Shown piece after piece: positions 1,880 through 21,006 of a stretch of DNA of 21,008 nt. Position 1 is the first letter of the stretch, and each line of letters opens with the position of its first letter. The notes beneath the pieces are model-generated. The model was not told where the DNA came from. It worked only from the letters and a program-made list of their open reading frames with translations, and searched no databases. The translations under genes were made by a program, and so were the position numbers. The DNA comes from Candidatus Thorarchaeota archaeon (lineage in GTDB: Archaea > Asgardarchaeota > Thorarchaeia > Thorarchaeales > Thorarchaeaceae). The DNA is taken from the NCBI GenBank assembly GCA_020348985.1, contig CP070761.1, positions 1,252,639-1,273,646 of the forward strand, in the 5' to 3' direction.

Positions 1880-3040
1880 ATGAAAACACGAACTGTCATG
1901 GCTCTTGTAAAGAAGAACTTGAAAGGCACAACAAGAGAGCCGGCGGCTCTGTTTCTTGTGATACTGTTCCCTCTGCTTACGACGGTGGCCTTTGGACTCG
2001 CTTTTGGTGGAATGGATAGTGGTGGCACTTCTGAGTTCACAATTGGTGTTGTGAACATGGACTCAGGCCCCTATGATTCTGTATGGGCCGAGAGCTTTGT
2101 GGGCAACTTGACGGAGGTGAACGGAACGATTGTCACTCACTATGATGACAACACAACAGGCCAAGACGACCTTCTCAATGGAAACTTGGATGCACTTGTC
2201 GTCATCCCTGAGGGCTTCAGCGAGAGCTGCGATTCTTACTGGCAAACACCAGGCGATAGCGGCAGCTGGATCAACTCAACCGTAGAGCTCTATGTTGACA
2301 GTGGTTCAATGATTGCGGGAGGCGCGATACCACCACTTGTACAGCAAGTTCTGTTGAATACGCTCTTTGGTGAGCAGTCCATGTCCTTGGAGCTGCCAAT
2401 TGAGATTGGAAGTCCATCAAGCGTTGTAGTAAGCGACATGACTCAGTGGGACTTCATGGCGCCCGGAATGTTTGCGTTTGCCGGTGTGTTTCTCATCATG
2501 ACTGTGTCGCAAACTTTGGGTGTGGAAAGGGAAACAGGCCTACTAGGACGAATGGCAACAACGCCCGTGACTTCTTCGGAGTATATGGTCAGCCAGACTC
2601 TATCCAACATGATTCTGGCACTAGCACAGGTTGCAGTTATTTTCACATCTTCAATTCTAATCGGCTATCAGCCCGACACTAGCCTGGCGGGATTGGTTTT
2701 CGCATTTGGCATTGTCAGTCTGTTTGCTCTGACCTCAGTTGGGTTAGGCCTAATCACAGCGGTACTCTCCAAATCTCCAGATGTCGCCACAGGCATTGCA
2801 TTCATCTTCATCATGCCGCAAATGTTCTTTGGAACCTTCATGCCACTGGGTGCATTGTCTGAGAGCATCGGTAAGTTCATGCCTAGCGGCTATGTCACCC
2901 ATGCGTTAACCACGCTCTTCCTGAGGGGCGCGCCAATCACAACTTTCTCGGTCTGGATGGACCTGCTAATCCTTGCCGTTACTGGCATCGTGGTTCTTGT
3001 TGTGGGCATTGTCCTCTTCAAGAAACGAGGGATAAAGTAA
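1880..3040 (+). CDS. ABC-2 type exporter permease with large extracellular loop
   Basis: N-terminal TM helix, extracellular domain (IGVVNMD...DALVVIPEGFS), ERETGLLGRMATTP motif, then five further hydrophobic helices. Starts 1 nt after the ATPase stop. Confidence 0.92.
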   Translation: MKTRTVMALVKKNLKGTTREPAALFLVILFPLLTTVAFGLAFGGMDSGGTSEFTIGVVNMDSGPYDSVWAESFVGNLTEVNGTIVTHYDDNTTGQDDLLNGNLDALVVIPEGFSESCDSYWQTPGDSGSWINSTVELYVDSGSMIAGGAIPPLVQQVLLNTLFGEQSMSLELPIEIGSPSSVVVSDMTQWDFMAPGMFAFAGVFLIMTVSQTLGVERETGLLGRMATTPVTSSEYMVSQTLSNMILALAQVAVIFTSSILIGYQPDTSLAGLVFAFGIVSLFALTSVGLGLITAVLSKSPDVATGIAFIFIMPQMFFGTFMPLGALSESIGKFMPSGYVTHALTTLFLRGAPITTFSVWMDLLILAVTGIVVLVVGIVLFKKRGIK

Positions 3041-3052
3041 CTCCAATCCTAC

Positions 3053-3098
3053 TCTGTGCTGCCTGCATTGGAAAGGTGGCACAGACGTTCTTCTTTTT
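3053..3098 (+). terminator. Stem-loop plus T-rich tract after the ABC operon
   Basis: TCTGTGCTGCCT (3053-3064) pairs with AGGTGGCACAGA (3074-3085), 12 bp including 2 G-U pairs, followed by TTCTTCTTTTT. Confidence 0.6.
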
Positions 3099-3193
3099 CA
3101 ACAGTTCGCGTTTCTTGTGTTAGCTGAAAGCTATCTGTTTCGAAGGTATTTAATAGAGGACGGATTGCTTCAAGCAAATGGGAACGTGACACA

Positions 3194-3889
3194 ATGAGTC
3201 AAGAGTCGGGCAACTCTGATGAAGAGAATCCTCTTGAAGATGTGCGAGAGCAAGCTAGACAACTTCTTGAGTTGACATCACTAGTTGAGAAGTACCCAAT
3301 TGTTGTAGCACGAAGAGTTACAGGGCTGGTCTATATACTTGTAGCAGGAGCAATCTCGTTTGCTTCTTTGGTATTTGTAACTCTGTTCAACATCATCGAG
3401 GATATCTATCAGAGCCTAATTCCGGTGCTGCTTGTTGTGGGGACTAGCCTCTTCCTAGCATGGCTAATCGCATTCAGACTTATTGCTCCACTGTCAAGAT
3501 CCTATGTTGTTCCTTCTGCTGAGAGTGAGATGTCCACAGGGTGGAAACTGATATGGGGGATACTGGCCGTCCTGATTGTAATAGCAGCAGCGTATACCTT
3601 CGGGACTGGGCAAGACCTTCTCTTTGCACCAATACTGCAGTTCCTCATGACAATTGGTATCTTTGTCAACTACTGGGGTGCAACCAAGGTTCCAGAGACA
3701 GCTCCTTTTGCTCGTGAACTTCTTGTCTATGCGGTCTTGATTGGACTTAGCATGATCCCAATCCTTCTCTTTCCGTCGTTCTCTTATGTCTTCATAATGA
3801 TAGTCGACATGGGGGGCATCTATTTCCTTGGGGTCTATATGCTGATATCCGCCGAGAAGGCACTTCTTGTAGGATCGGGGCGGGAGTAG
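3194..3889 (+). CDS. Hypothetical integral membrane protein (about 6 TM helices)
   Basis: 231-aa ORF with an acidic N-terminus followed by repeated hydrophobic segments. TATA-like TTTAATAG at 3149-3156. Coupled to the downstream regulator. Confidence 0.8.
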   Translation: MSQESGNSDEENPLEDVREQARQLLELTSLVEKYPIVVARRVTGLVYILVAGAISFASLVFVTLFNIIEDIYQSLIPVLLVVGTSLFLAWLIAFRLIAPLSRSYVVPSAESEMSTGWKLIWGILAVLIVIAAAYTFGTGQDLLFAPILQFLMTIGIFVNYWGATKVPETAPFARELLVYAVLIGLSMIPILLFPSFSYVFIMIVDMGGIYFLGVYMLISAEKALLVGSGRE

Positions 3890-13977: not shown

Positions 13978-15318
13978 ATGAAGCTCAGAGATGTTGTTGC
14001 TGGTGCTAACGCCTCAATGTATCACCGACTTGACTTCCAGAAGATCCGGGGAGTCTACTATCCGCGCTCAGAAGCAGAAGTTGTAGAAGCCATCGAGCAA
14101 GCCAGAGCAAAGGGTTACGAGATTACGCCCAAGGGCGGAGGCTCGGGTCTAAGCGGAGCGTGTACTGGAGGAAACCGTGATCGTTTCATAGTCAGCACAC
14201 TTCAAATGAAAGAACTCCTCACAATCTCGAAAGACCAAGGTTACGTCGATGTTCAGCCTGGAGCTACTCCGGATGAGATAAACGAGGTTCTCGAACCAAT
14301 GGGAATGAAGCTCTATGTATCTCCAAGCTCTAGGGACATTGCTACTTTGGGAGGGCTGCTCGCAACAGACGGTGGCGGTAACGACACGTGGGCTAATGGA
14401 ACAATGCGTGACAACACTGTGCGAGTTAAGATGGTCCTTTATGATGGCAGACGTCTGATAGTTGACTGGGAAGGAGTCAGAAGTGATGACGCAGAACTCG
14501 CACTCGAGCTCAACAAGAAAGACATGACAATCCACGACGTCGCCAGCGCACATGGAACGCTAGGATTCGTGACTGAGCTCAGGGTCACAATCAGACCTCT
14601 TGTTGAGGAACACCTGATGGGAGCCATTGCTGTATACGAGGACTTCGATGCGTTAGGGTCCGCGCTTGATAGGATGATCAAATCTGAGACCCCTATCAGA
14701 TACGGAGAAGCGATTGTAGAAGCTCACAAGGACGTGAGAGATGATCTGACACCGCCAATCCTTATTCTCGAGTTTCCTGAAAAGGAGAAGGCAAGCATAG
14801 CCGAGACAACTGACTTTGAAGAGGTTGATTCTGGGGAGCTGGAACGCCTGAAGGACATCAGGATAAAGCTCCCGAAACGAAATCCCAATGAAGGCGTTCA
14901 AGCGGCGCTCTTTGAGGGTTATGGATTCTTTGAGGACAGCTTGAGAGGTATGCAATCGAGGATGGAAGCTATCAATGGTCTTCTCATAGAGGATGGATTC
15001 GAACCCTTCGCGAAATATGGCCACGGTCCGAGTAAGTGGTATCTCGGCGATAATACGCCAGCATTTGGATTGATTATGCACTCGCGAGAAATCAGGCCGA
15101 CGGACAAGACTGGAAAGGAGTTGTTCGAGACTGTTCTGAAGATTGTGGATCTGTGCGATGACATGGGAATAACGCCGAAACCAGAGCACAAGTGGCCTTT
15201 CAGCGACAAGGCGAAGAAGACGCGTATTGAAGAACTTAGGACAATAATCGGAGAAGGATTCAATGCGTTCATCTTCGAGCCAGAGTGCGCTTCCGAGACT
15301 CTTTCCTCAATGGTCTGA
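13978..15318 (+). CDS. FAD-binding oxidoreductase, GlcD / D-lactate dehydrogenase (FAD_binding_4) family, with divergent C-terminus
   Basis: YPRSEAEV..., PKGGGSGLSGAC, VQPG, ATLGGLLATDGGG, HGTLGFVTE, and C-terminal PEHK (family consensus GEHG). Abuts the Fe-S subunit gene. Confidence 0.85.
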   Translation: MKLRDVVAGANASMYHRLDFQKIRGVYYPRSEAEVVEAIEQARAKGYEITPKGGGSGLSGACTGGNRDRFIVSTLQMKELLTISKDQGYVDVQPGATPDEINEVLEPMGMKLYVSPSSRDIATLGGLLATDGGGNDTWANGTMRDNTVRVKMVLYDGRRLIVDWEGVRSDDAELALELNKKDMTIHDVASAHGTLGFVTELRVTIRPLVEEHLMGAIAVYEDFDALGSALDRMIKSETPIRYGEAIVEAHKDVRDDLTPPILILEFPEKEKASIAETTDFEEVDSGELERLKDIRIKLPKRNPNEGVQAALFEGYGFFEDSLRGMQSRMEAINGLLIEDGFEPFAKYGHGPSKWYLGDNTPAFGLIMHSREIRPTDKTGKELFETVLKIVDLCDDMGITPKPEHKWPFSDKAKKTRIEELRTIIGEGFNAFIFEPECASETLSSMV

Positions 15319-15383
15319 AAGGACCGAATACTTTCGGCCATCTCCGAGGGGTGCTTAAAAGGACCTCTAGACACCAACCTTTG

Positions 15384-16523
15384 ATGAGAATGGTAAGACC
15401 CAGCCGCAGCCCCAGGGGCCTCTTTGACCCCTATTATGTGCCATCGAAACTTCTGCATCGCGATAGAGAGCTGGATACGATAAACGGCGTGTATCGCGAC
15501 TCCTACGAGGACAATTACGGCATCAACTGTCTCGTCCATGGGATATCCGGCGTCGGACGGACTGTCTTCTCACGATACTTTCTCACCAAGATAGTCCCGG
15601 AGAATTTCGACGCCAGGACCGTATATGTGGATGCAAGGAGCAAAGGCTACGCTGAGATTGTGACAGAACTCAACGACAAGATTGCGGGGATGTCCGAGGC
15701 TGTTACTGTTGCCTTTGACCTTGACCAGTTGTGGATTCAGTTCAAGAGAACAGCAGCATCTTCTCCAAAGAGGACCGTCTTTGTGATTGACAACATCGAC
15801 GACACGAACGAGGAGGTCTACGCCAAGCTCGCAAGACTGTCTAAGGAAATCAACGCAAGCACAATTGGAATACTCAACAGCCATGACTACAGGTTCCTGA
15901 CCAAGGTTCCCGCAACCTCCATGGCGTATGACTTCGAGTTACCACTAGATACCTACACTCAGGCACAGCTATACGAGATCATAAGGATGCGAGTTGAAGA
16001 CACGTTTCCCCTCGGCCTGACCGAGGAAGTGCTTCGTTATATCACCGATATTGTGTGCGAGTTCGACGCATCTAAGCCGAAGACCTCAATCGAGGCTTTG
16101 AAGGTCCTTTGGCCACTCGCCCAAAGGGGCCAAGAGATTGACTCGGACTCGGTAAGAGCAGCAACTTCAAGGATAACAACGTTTGGACACGACCAGGACT
16201 ATATGGACATCATTGATACTATCAGCATGAATGACTTCATGACATTGCTTGTTCTGGAAGCGATGACTGAACATCTGATGCGCTACAAGACAGAGACCTA
16301 CATTGACAGGCAGACTCTGAGTGAACTTGTTATGATCAAATGCGAGGAACTTGATGTCAAATACTCTGACAACGACATTGAGAGAAGTCTGCAGACTCTG
16401 ATTTTCCAGAGCGTGGTGTTTGAATCAGGATACTCTCGAAGTCTACTCTATACTCTAGTGCCGCCTGAGATACTCCATGATACAGCCCTCAGCCTTAGGA
16501 GAGAACTAGTAAGAAGGAAGTAG
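15384..16523 (+). CDS. Cdc6/Orc1-family AAA+ paralogue with degenerate ATPase motifs
   Basis: FDPYYVPSKLLHRDRELDTI N-terminus, GISGVGRT, VFVIDNID, YTQAQLYEIIRMR and a C-terminal winged-helix-like region. TATA-like CTTAAAAG about 30 nt before ATG 15384; ATG 15390 is an alternative start. Confidence 0.85.
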   Translation: MRMVRPSRSPRGLFDPYYVPSKLLHRDRELDTINGVYRDSYEDNYGINCLVHGISGVGRTVFSRYFLTKIVPENFDARTVYVDARSKGYAEIVTELNDKIAGMSEAVTVAFDLDQLWIQFKRTAASSPKRTVFVIDNIDDTNEEVYAKLARLSKEINASTIGILNSHDYRFLTKVPATSMAYDFELPLDTYTQAQLYEIIRMRVEDTFPLGLTEEVLRYITDIVCEFDASKPKTSIEALKVLWPLAQRGQEIDSDSVRAATSRITTFGHDQDYMDIIDTISMNDFMTLLVLEAMTEHLMRYKTETYIDRQTLSELVMIKCEELDVKYSDNDIERSLQTLIFQSVVFESGYSRSLLYTLVPPEILHDTALSLRRELVRRK

Positions 16524-17470: not shown

Positions 17471-17896
17471 CTAGGAGGGTTTCTTCTCGGCAATCTGAGC
17501 CTTGATCCAACCCTCTAGTCCAGCGGCGCCTTGAAGCTCTGCAGCATCGCCGTCGTAGTTCTCAGGTTCGACGACAGCTATCCAGCCTGCACCGAATGGA
17601 TCATCATTAAGAAGACCGGGGTTGTTCTTCAGCTCATCATTGACTTCTGCAAGTACGCCTGCAAATGGGGTCTTGATCGGACCAGTCCACTTGCCGCTTT
17701 CCATTGTTCCGATACTCTTGCCCGCCTTGACATCCTTGCCGGCGGGTCGAAGTCTAACGAACTTGATCTTACCAGCGAGGTCGGCGCCAAACGCAGTAAG
17801 GCCAATACGGACCTTGCCGTCCTCCTTCTTTACCCAGATCTGATCATCAGTATACAATAGGTCATCAGGAAAATCAAAGCCTTCCACTGTAACCAT
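17471..17896 (-). CDS. gcvH: Glycine cleavage H-like lipoyl-carrier protein (ESGKW type, LbpA-like)
   Basis: FPDDLLY...WV...RIGLT, MESGKW (lipoyl Lys), VNDEL..NPGLLNDDPFGAGWI. ATG 17896 has a GGTGA RBS upstream. Confidence 0.9.
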   Translation of the reverse strand: MVTVEGFDFPDDLLYTDDQIWVKKEDGKVRIGLTAFGADLAGKIKFVRLRPAGKDVKAGKSIGTMESGKWTGPIKTPFAGVLAEVNDELKNNPGLLNDDPFGAGWIAVVEPENYDGDAAELQGAAGLEGWIKAQIAEKKPS

Positions 17897-17964
17897 AACA
17901 GAGTCACCTGCGATGGGCAATGGCGGGTTCCTTAAGTCAGTTTCGGACCGAGGGTCAAAATCCA

Positions 17965-18183
17965 TTATAAACCGGCTTTTTCTGGTTCCGGTTCCGCATT
18001 GATTACGCGCATAGCTTTTTCGACATCGGCTGTCTCGAGCTCTGCAAAAACCGTCCCTGAATAGCCGCATCCTTCCTTTAGACAAGCATAGGACGGTGGC
18101 ACCTTCCATCCATTCTGAATATTCTTGGTCTCAGCTATCTCAGAGCTGAAACACTTGGGGCAGACTCTAATCCGCTTGGTCAC
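17965..18183 (-). CDS. Small zinc-finger/zinc-ribbon protein (72 aa)
   Basis: CPKC...CLKEGCGYSG. GGAGG RBS before the GTG start and a TATA-like TTTAATAG upstream on the - strand. Confidence 0.75.
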   Translation of the reverse strand: MTKRIRVCPKCFSSEIAETKNIQNGWKVPPSYACLKEGCGYSGTVFAELETADVEKAMRVINAEPEPEKAGL

Positions 18184-18277: not shown

Positions 18278-18302
18278 CTTATTACTGCTGAACAAAACAG
18301 TA
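18278..18302 (+). promoter_or_regulatory. TATA-like box overlapped by the palindrome TACTG-N10-CAGTA (candidate repressor operator)
   Basis: CTTATTAC 18278-18285, TACTG 18283-18287, CAGTA 18298-18302, ATG at 18310. Confidence 0.45.
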
Positions 18303-18309
18303 CTTTGGA

Positions 18310-19080
18310 ATGAAAGATTCGAGACCTCTGTTGAGACCAGGCTTCAGGACTGCGGACGAGGTCATTCGCCAGACCGCCAAGACCGGAACTCCCGAGCTAG
18401 ATGACCTACTTGGAGGCGGTCTGGAGTCAGGAATGACCCATCTTTTCTACGGCGACCGAGGTCTCCATGGCGACCTGCTCAAGACAGCGGTGCACTTCCA
18501 GCGCCCAAAGGAGGAAGGGGGGCTGCTCAGTCCAGCAATAGTTATCGACAGTGCGAATATGATTAAGATTGAGCAGATAAGCGACTACTCAGATGAGTTT
18601 GGGCTCGAGCCTGAGGAGGTCATGGACCAGATCTACATCTCGCGTGCCTTCAACTCTTCGCAGACATATGACCTAGTGATGAACCAGCTAGACAGCTTCT
18701 TCGACAAGATACCTGCCAGGATGTTGATAGTCTCAGGCCTGCCCGACTTGTATATGTCAGAGGGAGTGACCAGCGATGGACTGCAGGAACTCACTCACAT
18801 GGCCACGAGACTAATGACCTTCACTTTGAAGAGAGGCGTCTTCACATTGGTCTCTGCACCACGTTCTGAGAAGAGTCCCAAGCATCCAGCTGGGGGGAAG
18901 GCTCTCGCAAGTTGTGCACAGATACATGTCTTTGTGGAGGAGTCCAAGTCCTACTTCAAGTACACTTTGGCGAAACACCCTCAATATCCGGTGAGACGCT
19001 CTTCACGGGTGAAACCGGTGAGGTTCGGAACAACTCTTCCACTCTCTCACTTCCTCGGCAGGGAGGAGAAAGAGGAGTAG
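18310..19080 (+). CDS. RadA/Rad51-like paralogue lacking Walker A/B (inactive RecA fold)
   Basis: TGTPELDDLLGGGLESG.THLFYG, MDQIYISRAFNSSQ and PAGGKAL match the RadA core. The P-loop reads GDRGLHGD and Walker B reads LIVSG. No N-terminal HhH domain. Confidence 0.85.
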   Translation: MKDSRPLLRPGFRTADEVIRQTAKTGTPELDDLLGGGLESGMTHLFYGDRGLHGDLLKTAVHFQRPKEEGGLLSPAIVIDSANMIKIEQISDYSDEFGLEPEEVMDQIYISRAFNSSQTYDLVMNQLDSFFDKIPARMLIVSGLPDLYMSEGVTSDGLQELTHMATRLMTFTLKRGVFTLVSAPRSEKSPKHPAGGKALASCAQIHVFVEESKSYFKYTLAKHPQYPVRRSSRVKPVRFGTTLPLSHFLGREEKEE

Positions 19081-19092
19081 CAGGCCGCCACT

Positions 19093-21006
19093 CTATTCTC
19101 TATCTCCCAAGCTCTTCACGAGCTCTTCTACAAGATCACGAGGTAGCTCTCTGGCCTGTTCCATGATCGTCTCAATCTCGTGTGCGGGAACACCGCGACC
19201 TTCGAGGTCTTTTCTCAGCTCCTCGAGCTCGAACTGGCTCAATTTGTCTGAGGGAGTTGCTGCCTCTTCGAAGTCTCGGATTATCTCATCCGAGATGTCC
19301 TCTTCAGGTGGTCGCTCCACTTCTTCTTCTTCGGGCAGAAGAATGACTCTTTCCTCAACGGGGATAACTTCCAGACCAGTTATGTCTATGATCTCTTCGC
19401 CAGCCACGCGTCGAGAAGCCTCAGCTTGAATCTCCTCTAGAACCTCCTCGACGGTCTTGCCATCCCGTCGAGCCGCTCGAATGGCCTCCTGATTGATGAC
19501 TTCTTTCACGAATGCAGCTTGTTCGCTCGGGCGCATCTTGGATATGTCGGCCTTGAACTCATCTAGTTCCTCAGGACTCAGATGAGTGAGGATTGATAGC
19601 TGTATCAGAAGGTCACCAATTTCTGGAACCTCTACAGGAACTGACTCTTCCGGCATCTGTGCTGCGACTCTTGTGACTTCAATCTCAAGTCCCTGATACG
19701 TATCGTTGAACAGCTCTGCGAGGAGTTCTTGTCTAGTCTTTGCTTCAGTGATGGGTTTGGGCACTCTTCCCTTTCGGAGGGCACTAATCTGACCATTGAT
19801 CTGCCTGAGCCTCTTCGGTATGCTAAAGTAACGAGTCCAAGAAACTATCAGGATTATAGCAATAAAGAGCGCAGGAGTCCCAAATGAGATTATGTTTCCA
19901 GTGAGTGTCTGCTGTTCAGTTGGATATATGTTGATTCTTAGTTCCAGTACTTGGGTTTCATAGTCTGATCGCTCTATGATCAAGTCAACTCGAACTACCT
20001 CTTGGTCAAGTCCAACGGGAATTAGTGGCGCCGCAACAAGTATTTTGATTTTATATACGCCGGCCTCTTCTGTTGGTCCTATCTCAAGAATCTGGACGAT
20101 GACTTCTTCACGCTCGTAGCTTAAGTTCGCACCAGTAATGGGATTGCCGCGTGTCGTTATCCAATCCTCTGTGTATCTGACATAAACATCCAGCACTTGA
20201 CCGTAGGTAATGTTCATCTCACCATTGATTACATAGCTGGTTCTAAATTCGAAATTCGTTGGCCTTTCGATTATAGTCACTAGAATCGAAAGATCCGATT
20301 GAGTTTCGTGATTAAGTAGTGAGAACTCTGCTCGAAGTGTGAAGGGCGCCTGAGGTAGAGCTCTAGGATCGTTTCCGTATATCTCGAAGAGCCATCCCGC
20401 TGTAGAATCAAATACGAAGGAGTACGTACCATTGCCTAGGTCCAGAATCTCAAACTCTGTGCTGGTTGAGATGCCACCCCCGTATATTGACGTCTCTAGA
20501 GTGGCACCAGACAACCCTCCGACATAACCGCTGGTCAAATCAGCATTGATGGTTGGATCGACGCCGTAATAGAACAGGATTGAGATTGTGTCACCAAATG
20601 GCACAATCAGTTCGTCTATTTCATTATCAACCTGGTTTGCGGCGGGAGTAATCAGCTGAAGCTCCGTTGCGACTTCGTCAACCTTCAACGAGATGCCACC
20701 ACTGCTAACCTCGTAATTGTCCTTGTCAAAGAAGATCGTCACAGGATGTCGTAGTCCTGGCGTCAAGTACGCCGTGTCTACCATGACGACGTAAGTGCCA
20801 TTTCCAAGATCTATGGCGGGTCCAGAGAAATTACCCCAATTGAAAGTTGCAGAGGCATTCGACACACCTTCATTGAAGTACGTGTCATTGTACGTGAAAC
20901 TGATGTTTCCTGCCCATCCCCAATATACTGTCTCTGCTATTGGACTTACGACTTCGGTTCTAATCTTGGTAATAGTAATCGTCAAGGTCACTACATCTTG
21001 TGCAAG
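19093..21006 (-). CDS. Large single-pass membrane/surface protein, 5'-truncated by the window edge
   Basis: The frame stays open past the track start to the edge (..LAQDVVTLT). Beta-rich repeats with DLGNGTY twice and many NxS/T sequons, a TM segment (FGTPALFIAIILIVSW) and an acidic cytoplasmic tail of about 245 aa. Confidence 0.88.
   Translation of the reverse strand, partial: LAQDVVTLTITITKIRTEVVSPIAETVYWGWAGNISFTYNDTYFNEGVSNASATFNWGNFSGPAIDLGNGTYVVMVDTAYLTPGLRHPVTIFFDKDNYEVSSGGISLKVDEVATELQLITPAANQVDNEIDELIVPFGDTISILFYYGVDPTINADLTSGYVGGLSGATLETSIYGGGISTSTEFEILDLGNGTYSFVFDSTAGWLFEIYGNDPRALPQAPFTLRAEFSLLNHETQSDLSILVTIIERPTNFEFRTSYVINGEMNITYGQVLDVYVRYTEDWITTRGNPITGANLSYEREEVIVQILEIGPTEEAGVYKIKILVAAPLIPVGLDQEVVRVDLIIERSDYETQVLELRINIYPTEQQTLTGNIISFGTPALFIAIILIVSWTRYFSIPKRLRQINGQISALRKGRVPKPITEAKTRQELLAELFNDTYQGLEIEVTRVAAQMPEESVPVEVPEIGDLLIQLSILTHLSPEELDEFKADISKMRPSEQAAFVKEVINQEAIRAARRDGKTVEEVLEEIQAEASRRVAGEEIIDITGLEVIPVEERVILLPEEEEVERPPEEDISDEIIRDFEEAATPSDKLSQFELEELRKDLEGRGVPAHEIETIMEQARELPRDLVEELVKSLGDRE

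Follow-up and report, generated by a model that had tools for sequence, protein, structure and literature searches.

PolB2, arCOG07300 and an inactivated RadA have been described as encoded in one operon, often beside orc1/cdc6 (Makarova, Krupovic & Koonin 2014, PMC4104785). Timinskas, Timinskas & Venclovas (2025, PMC11791011) introduced the names PolB2, PPB2 and iRadA; in their in silico model of a PolB2-iRadA-PPB2(3) complex, a PolB2 loop mimics the RadA oligomerisation motif and occupies a socket on iRadA. The iRadA family is spread across archaea and bacteria, and many of its C-termini carry PCNA motifs (archaea) or beta-clamp motifs (bacteria), rarely alongside such a motif on PolB2 (PMC11791011). 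The consulted parts of the text and supplements of that study mention Loki- and Heimdallarchaeota operons; no mention of Thorarchaeota operons was found in them, which does not prove absence. Here we describe a gene on the plus strand of a 21,008-nucleotide stretch of DNA, hereafter the window, from Candidatus Thorarchaeota archaeon (NCBI GenBank assembly GCA_020348985.1, contig CP070761.1, positions 1,252,639 to 1,273,646 of the forward strand), whose genome is one contig of 3.16 Mb. The gene, at 18310-19080, probably encodes iRadA, the dead RadA-fold subunit of the archaeal PolB2 (Dpo2-type) translesion polymerase complex composed of PolB2, iRadA and a trimer of PPB2.

The Thorarchaeota protein shares with published iRadAs a RadA core without the N-terminal domain, dead Walker A and Walker B motifs, the YGD, VSGL and KHPxxP signatures and a clamp-like C-terminal tail; its genome likewise holds PPB2 and a PolB2 of the IVD type, and an orc1/cdc6 paralogue lies near the gene. 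It differs from them in three respects. The gene is far from PPB2-PolB2, in a block of orc1/cdc6-like, gcvH and Zn-ribbon genes; the protein has a canonical, invariant FxTAD; and its tail motif lacks the Gln and is followed by an acidic end. The gene and its elements are as follows.

18310..19080, plus strand: iRadA gene, an inactivated RadA paralogue of 256 aa without the N-terminal helix-hairpin-helix (HhH) domain (Pfam, PDB alignment, AlphaFold2 (AF2) model, tree)
18343..18357, plus strand: FRTAD (F12-D16), polymerisation plug of the RadA type, within the N-terminal disordered tail (opposite FMRADE in the 1pzn alignment)
18451..18474, plus strand: degenerate Walker A, GDRGLHGD (G48-D55), without Lys/Thr (1pzn alignment, 43 orthologues)
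18538..18654, plus strand: segments I77-I90 and M105-N115 (…IYISRAFN), aligned to the socket strands and helix of RadA/RAD51
18721..18738, plus strand: degenerate Walker B, MLIVSG, with the Asp replaced by the invariant G143 (1pzn alignment, 43 orthologues)
19033..19056, plus strand: TLPLSHFL (T242-L249), a tail motif like the PCNA-interacting protein (PIP) box but without Gln, in the disordered tail (conservation; distant iRadA tails)
19057..19077, plus strand: short acidic end GREEKEE after the tail motif

The predicted protein matched the Pfam family Rad51 (PF08423, E 3.6e-15), and its best solved relative was the P. furiosus RadA 1pzn (E 1.4e-19). Residues 12-214 aligned to RadA residues 97-320 and to no other part of it, and therefore the entire N-terminal HhH domain is absent. 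This alignment pairs FMRADE, GEFGSGKT and LLIVDS of RadA with FRTADE, GDRGLHGD and MLIVSG of iRadA, respectively. An AF2 model (predicted local distance difference test score, pLDDT, 86.9; predicted template-modelling score, pTM, 0.82) is confident over a core of about residues 20-235 and shows disordered tails of low confidence, and Foldseek found the core to be nearest to RAD51/RadA protomers (TM about 0.8). FRTAD and TLPLSHFL both lie in the flexible tails, as is typical of short linear motifs. The protein missed the RadA equivalog cut-offs (75.5 bits against 361 for TIGR02236, 74.8 against 259 for NF003301) as well as the RadB cut-off (27.4 against 172.4 bits for TIGR02237).

A protein search returned 224 relatives, the best 120 of which are about 255 residues long and 57-71% identical to the query, with nearly all of the named ones from Thorarchaeota. 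We scored residue conservation in an alignment of 43 orthologues (56-71% identity). The dead P-loop residues G48, L52 and D55 and the Walker B substitute G143 are invariant, and the P-loop Lys/Thr and the Walker B Asp are absent from every orthologue. Judged from these motifs, the product is non-catalytic and its ATPase is lost. The intact frame and the invariant motifs exclude a pseudogene or a decaying copy. F12, T14, A15 and D16 of the plug and R112, A113, F114 and N115 are likewise invariant. In both the orthologue and the 1pzn alignments, conservation of iRadA is highest over …IVIDSANMIKIEQI… and …IYISRAFN…; from the RAD51-BRC4 and HumRadA structures, we take I77-I90 and M105-N115 to form the FxxA-binding socket. 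In the tail, all 43 orthologues share P244, L245 and S246, and 42 of them have F248. The loose pattern [LIVM]xx[FYW][FLMIYW] occurs within the last 16 residues of 269 of 2738 crude open reading frames (ORFs) of the host genome (about 10%); a single match therefore means nothing, and the argument rests on conservation.

An earlier note on the window, made from the sequence alone, had placed FRTA at 18343-18354 and TTLPLSHFL at 19030-19056, and both positions are exact. Its reading of a dead P-loop (GDRGLHGD) and a lost Walker B Asp (LIVSG) agrees with the 1pzn alignment and the 43 orthologues, and the Gln that it had found missing from the PIP-like motif is indeed replaced by Thr at position 1. 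The conservation of FxxA and of the tail, for which it had pointed to an orthologue alignment, holds for both (F12/A15 in 43/43, F248 in 42/43).

The descent of the protein was resolved by remoter homologues. An exhaustive HMMER search detected further P-loop-less relatives at 25-36% identity (E 1e-31 to 1e-14), and those that carry names come from other Asgard lineages. These remote relatives and the query have in common YGD where RadA has its P-loop, VSG[LI] at the Walker B site, KHPxxP, and the C-terminal motif x-x-[TSP]-L-[DP]-x-[FYW]-[FLM]. All four remote relatives that we looked up lie directly upstream of a small DUF8156/PPB2 gene, which is followed in three of the four by a family-B DNA polymerase. 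Among eight further Asgard loci, six have the set of iRadA, PPB2 (MGRTVPSFR…) and PolB genes and one has iRadA alone. In a maximum-likelihood tree of 51 sequences, the dead proteins formed one clade (Shimodaira-Hasegawa-like approximate likelihood-ratio test, SH-aLRT, 95) separate from RadA (93), and the Thorarchaeota iRadAs formed one group (SH-aLRT 99) nested among operon-encoded iRadAs; the tree came from a quick search without the intein-bearing polymerase locus L014, and the deep order inside the dead clade is not firm.

The gene thus belongs to the iRadA family by descent. The RadA-PCNA adaptor proposed in the earlier note is, as a new type, ruled out by the tree, by the relatives in iRadA-PPB2-PolB2 operons and by the published iRadA family. 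That note had cited RadA-like genes linked to polB2 as an analogy only; the relation was right, and those genes turn out to be the actual family of this one. Kinship with eukaryotic RAD51 paralogues, Elp4 or KaiC was also rejected, as the generic LDxLLGGG region is all that matches: PAXNEB (Elp4) reached E 0.01 over 35 residues, KaiC E 0.18, and RAD51C and RAD51 homolog 3 E 0.23-0.55, which is chance level, against 1e-19 for RadA.

The other two components of the complex are encoded elsewhere in the host genome: 1.24 Mb from the window, the gene for a 759-aa PolB has a PPB2 homologue directly upstream.

L018:6489-8765: PolB2
L018:6205-6489: PPB2 (P0307), called from an ATG giving MKALGRTV

The host PolB (P0308) has IVDS in place of DxD, together with a DRGG motif, like operon-type PolB2s. 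The PPB2 start is probably a TTG three codons downstream of the called ATG, giving MGRTV, because the N-terminal MGRT arm of the family is conserved. No other close iRadA was found in the host genome; the gene is present in a single copy. The true RadA is encoded at 64 kb (G000) and carries GSFRSGKT, LLVVDS and GFETAD, and a RadB-like protein retains its Walker A (GSASAGKT). The earlier note had stated that no polymerase gene is adjacent, which is true for the window, but PPB2 and PolB2 are present in the same genome.

In a sample of 251 Asgard genomes, iRadA was detected in 55 of 59 genomes of the host's own family and PPB2 also in 55 of 59, and strong iRadA-like matches were confined to families that have PPB2 as well; in a second sample, PolB2 was present in 54 of 60 own-family genomes and lay beside PPB2 wherever coordinates were compared, except in G242. 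Asgard genomes are related, and these counts therefore describe a lineage trait and not independent events. The distance between iRadA and PPB2 was 40 kb to 1.24 Mb in the five own-family genomes with both on the same contig, and in the others the two genes are on different contigs. About 30 genomes of other Asgard families have the two genes next to each other or no more than 10 kb apart. An unlinked iRadA is the rule across this Thorarchaeota family. In genome G230, a broken second iRadA copy lies 8 kb from a weak PPB2-like match.

Some family genomes encode a second iRadA paralogue clade, which keeps FxTAD and has the tail TLPL[DE][YH]F[FM] (L064, L066, L067; G027, G103, G087). These genes sit outside the orc1/cdc6-gcvH-Zn-ribbon block, and their unrelated neighbours (arrestin-like, TPR, transporter) gave no functional lead. 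The host genome also holds a very remote second P-loop-less RecA-like gene (242 aa; Rad51 E 0.007), in which the Walker B LVVVDN is kept. It lies directly upstream of an XPG/FEN1-like nuclease gene, with a 158-aa RecA-like fragment nearby, and this locus may be another accessory recombination module.

L004 (G000 C1 84329-87847): 375-1364, 1375-2103 and 3028-3504, minus strand, remote RecA-like locus

The FxTAD plug of Thorarchaeota iRadAs is nearly identical to the host RadA motif GFETAD and stands at -18 from the LDxLL core motif, compared with -23 for FxxA in RadA. Several other Asgard iRadAs have weaker remnants (FIQAS, FKTAE, FINAY and [ILM]xTA at -23, including the operon-encoded L027), and Loki-type iRadAs have G[FY]xx at -19. 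Because of these remnants, the plug is probably an ancestral leftover that the Thorarchaeota lineage has kept in canonical form. No discussion of the FxTAD plug was found in the consulted parts of PMC4104785 and PMC11791011. On the polymerase side, Thorarchaeota PolB2s have a conserved docking loop (LIPP[VI]K[RK]NPE[FY]LK[ST]…IDRGG).

The C-terminal tail was compared with the PIP boxes of the host. Five host proteins (two Fen1 proteins, NreA, PolD DP2 and a DUF2797 protein) have a canonical box, Q-[ST]-x-L-x-D-F-[FIM], at the very C-terminus. Relative to Qxx[LIM]xx[FYW][FYWL], the iRadA tail has L4, F7 and L8, all conserved, and Gln-less PIP boxes exist, for example in Dpo4 (PMC3504372). No conserved C-terminal clamp motif was found in Thorarchaeota PolB2s, whose C-termini vary; together with the conserved iRadA tail, this fits the published pattern of a clamp motif on one protein or the other (PMC11791011). 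In a complex prediction, PCNA with iRadA residues 224-256 scored 0.40, and the best of three controls scored 0.01; the runs agreed in at least 77% of contacts, with a partner pLDDT of at least 49. Of 80 solved complexes, 58 reach the mark that this score passed, as do 2 of 110 mismatched pairs, and scores of 0.60 or less occur in only 7 of the 80 solved complexes and in both passing mismatches, although these calibration counts hold only roughly here since the run used its own alignments. As PIP-PCNA complexes have already been solved, the pass may also reflect likeness and not binding. The prediction is compatible with clamp binding and lends it weak support, without proving it. The DUF2797 protein, which ends in …TQSGLDDFI (L008, G000 C1 2253085-2254011), is itself a possible unrecognised PCNA client.

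Following the published in silico model, PolB2 would insert its FxxA-like loop into the iRadA socket, and the iRadA tail would tether the PolB2 complex to PCNA. As Thorarchaeota PolB2 lacks a conserved C-terminal clamp motif, iRadA would be the clamp-binding subunit. The free FxTAD plug could, speculatively, dock on a RadA protomer or on another iRadA. In one rather doubtful version of this scheme, the PolB2 complex, with the iRadA socket filled by PolB2, docks through FxTAD on the end of a RadA filament on single-stranded DNA while the iRadA tail holds PCNA. The link to the sliding clamp and a translesion-type polymerase, already suggested in the earlier note, is the best reading of the gene, and on PCNA binding the score of 0.40 against 0.01 goes only a little way.

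Several observations weigh against assigning the gene to the PolB2 complex or against a clamp role for its tail. The architecture of the PolB2 mutasome is itself so far an in silico model, drawn from operon context and structure prediction. No iRadA adjoining PPB2 was found in the own-family genomes searched, and in the host the two are 1.24 Mb apart. Compared with other Asgard PolB2s (E-x-F-[KRQ]-[TS]-[GAV]), the Thorarchaeota PolB2 loop has its Phe earlier by one position. The iRadA tail lacks the Gln-1 (replaced by Thr) and Asp-6 of the host PIP boxes, and seven mostly acidic residues follow it. Finally, the following Loki-type PolB2s were compared with the iRadAs of the same operons.

L023:3147-5540: Loki-type PolB2
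L024:4875-7283: Loki-type PolB2
L025:1712-4126, minus strand: Loki-type PolB2
L027:1374-3965, minus strand: Loki-type PolB2

Loki-type PolB2s end in canonical PIP boxes (QETLLNFV, QKDMSCFI, QGALDKFM), and the same-operon iRadAs end in LDxW/YF, so that the iRadA tail could serve another partner; clamp motifs on both proteins have been called rare (PMC11791011).

That the C-terminal motif is not a clamp box, and contacts PolB2, PPB2, the product of the neighbouring Zn-ribbon gene or another RecA-fold socket, is a real but minority possibility. The tail departs from every canonical host PIP in its missing Gln and Asp-6, Loki-type iRadAs keep it although their PolB2s have a canonical PIP, and the PCNA fold supports clamp binding only weakly. 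On the other hand, beta-clamp motifs occupy the same place in bacterial iRadAs, and published models, among them one of a Lokiarchaeota pair, show archaeal PIP-like iRadA motifs docked on PCNA (PMC11791011); PIP boxes without Gln are known from Dpo4 (PMC3504372), and the PCNA-tail score is 0.39 above the controls. The plug raises a different question, since its conservation together with that of the socket-forming segments would also suit self-assembly of iRadA into rings or short filaments, or pairing with the second paralogue, which has FxTAD too in several family genomes; FxTAD would then not serve RadA. We regard self-assembly as unlikely, given that in the published model the PolB2 loop occupies the iRadA socket (PMC11791011) and that the host genome has a single iRadA copy.

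A role independent of PolB2 would make iRadA a RadA mediator or cap in its own right, in the manner of RAD51 paralogues or BRC repeats, plugging a filament end with FxTAD and bringing PCNA. Capping of RadA filaments had been raised as a possibility in the earlier note. The invariance of FxTAD and its near identity to GFETAD of the host RadA would suit such a function, as would the unlinked gene and the presence of filament-capping RAD51 paralogue complexes among the structural neighbours, though the matched chains are RAD51 itself. Descent from operon-encoded iRadAs, however, together with the retention of PPB2-PolB2 in 54-55 of about 60 family genomes that offer no other iRadA candidate, the conserved PolB2 docking loop and the lack of specific RAD51-paralogue similarity (RAD51C E 0.2-0.5 against 1e-19 for RadA), makes it quite unlikely. 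Still less can be said for an Asgard forerunner of the eukaryotic RAD51 paralogues (XRCC2, RAD51B/C/D, Shu-type), an idea to which the Asgard origin, the dead ATPase and the RAD51 fold might lead; it is very improbable, as iRadA groups with prokaryotic iRadAs in the tree, matches to RAD51C and the RAD51 paralogues are at chance level (E 0.2-0.5) and the family spans archaea and bacteria (PMC11791011). Membership of the PolB2 complex remains the reading that we consider likely.

Around iRadA, the window holds a conserved block of genes and a variable downstream side.

15285..16523, plus strand: divergent third Orc1/Cdc6 paralogue beside the block (TIGR02928 73 bits against a cut-off of 181; PDB Cdc6 2qby, E 6.6e-12)
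17471..17896, minus strand: gcvH, glycine-cleavage H protein, a member of the conserved block (Pfam GCV_H, E 9.4e-33)
17965..18183, minus strand: 71-aa Zn-ribbon gene (…RVCP.CGS…C..C.YSG…), divergent from iRadA, a conserved partner
19093-20991, minus strand: convergent downstream gene of more than 632 aa, running off the window

In 11 of 12 main-clade loci, a Zn-ribbon gene (65-81 aa) is divergently paired with iRadA and gcvH follows. The 71-aa Zn-ribbon protein had no family match and is a possible unrecognised partner or regulator of iRadA. The longest gcvH ORF (17471-18109, minus strand, 212 aa) overlaps the Zn-ribbon gene; because the orthologues are 141-146 aa long, the start is probably the Met of MVTVEGF at 17896, which gives 141 aa. 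The divergent Orc1/Cdc6 paralogue is kept on the far side of the block in 10 of 12 orthologous loci, at 64-75% identity, and two bona fide Orc1/Cdc6 copies are encoded elsewhere in the host genome. We presume that the divergent paralogue could be a damage-response regulator of the type known from Sulfolobus Orc1-2. Since orc1/cdc6 genes have been reported as neighbours at PolB2 loci (PMC4104785, PMC11791011), its conservation beside iRadA indicates that in this lineage the association with orc1/cdc6 has remained on the iRadA side.

In orthologous iRadA promoters, the only recurring element is a TATA-like GGTTATTA, placed about 30 nt before the iRadA start and often preceded by TTTTGGGGG. An SOS-box-like palindrome, TACTG-N10-CAGTA (18278-18302), was considered as a shared operator and rejected: the genome has five such palindromes, none of them upstream of PPB2, and 12 orthologous iRadA promoters lack it. 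The genes downstream of iRadA vary between orthologous loci. In the window, the protein encoded at 19093-20991 is rich in Thr/Asn in its outer part, has a single transmembrane helix and a cytoplasmic tail that is long and acidic, and matched no family.

Three groups of described systems invite comparison. The E. coli Pol V Mut (UmuD'2C-RecA-ATP) resembles the PolB2 complex in having a RecA-family accessory of a damage-bypass polymerase, bound through a mimic of the oligomerisation motif (PMC11791011). In Pol V Mut, however, RecA is an active recombinase from a filament and has no clamp motif, whereas iRadA is a dedicated dead paralogue. BRCA2 BRC repeats and RAD51 paralogue caps (PDB 9svx, 9q29, 9zzr) employ, at a filament interface, a plug of the FxxA type or a subunit with the RAD51 fold, as iRadA might. 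They differ in having no sequence kinship with iRadA beyond the RAD51 fold. Human RAD51 paralogues keep their nucleotide-binding sites. RadB and ImuA (ImuA-ImuB-DnaE2) are, like iRadA, short RecA-fold proteins without an N-terminal domain, and ImuA also accompanies an error-prone polymerase; the host RadB-like protein keeps its Walker A, in contrast to the dead iRadA, and ImuA is part of another polymerase system (DnaE2).

What is new here is modest: a Thorarchaeota iRadA that is unlinked from PPB2-PolB2 across the family, sits in an orc1/cdc6-gcvH-Zn-ribbon block, and has a canonical plug and a Gln-less clamp-like tail. With iRadA outside the operon in one lineage, surveys based on gene vicinity miss members of the family. 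The Thorarchaeota protein keeps the socket, has a perfect RadA plug, whether gained or retained, and is the one member of the complex with a conserved clamp-like tail, and it thereby offers three mutable peptide handles on assembly and recruitment, namely F12/A15, the socket and L245/F248. If the PolB2 complex does dock on the end of a RadA filament, this would parallel, in an archaeon, the activation of Pol V at the tip of the RecA filament and would couple recombination filaments with a translesion polymerase and the clamp, and the weaker remnants ([FILM]xTA where RadA has its motif, G[FY]xx in Loki types) would make plug docking an overlooked general property of iRadAs. If the plug does not bind RadA, this is an ordinary iRadA in an unusual genomic place; if it does, archaeal translesion synthesis would be linked to recombination filaments in the closest prokaryotic relatives of eukaryotes.

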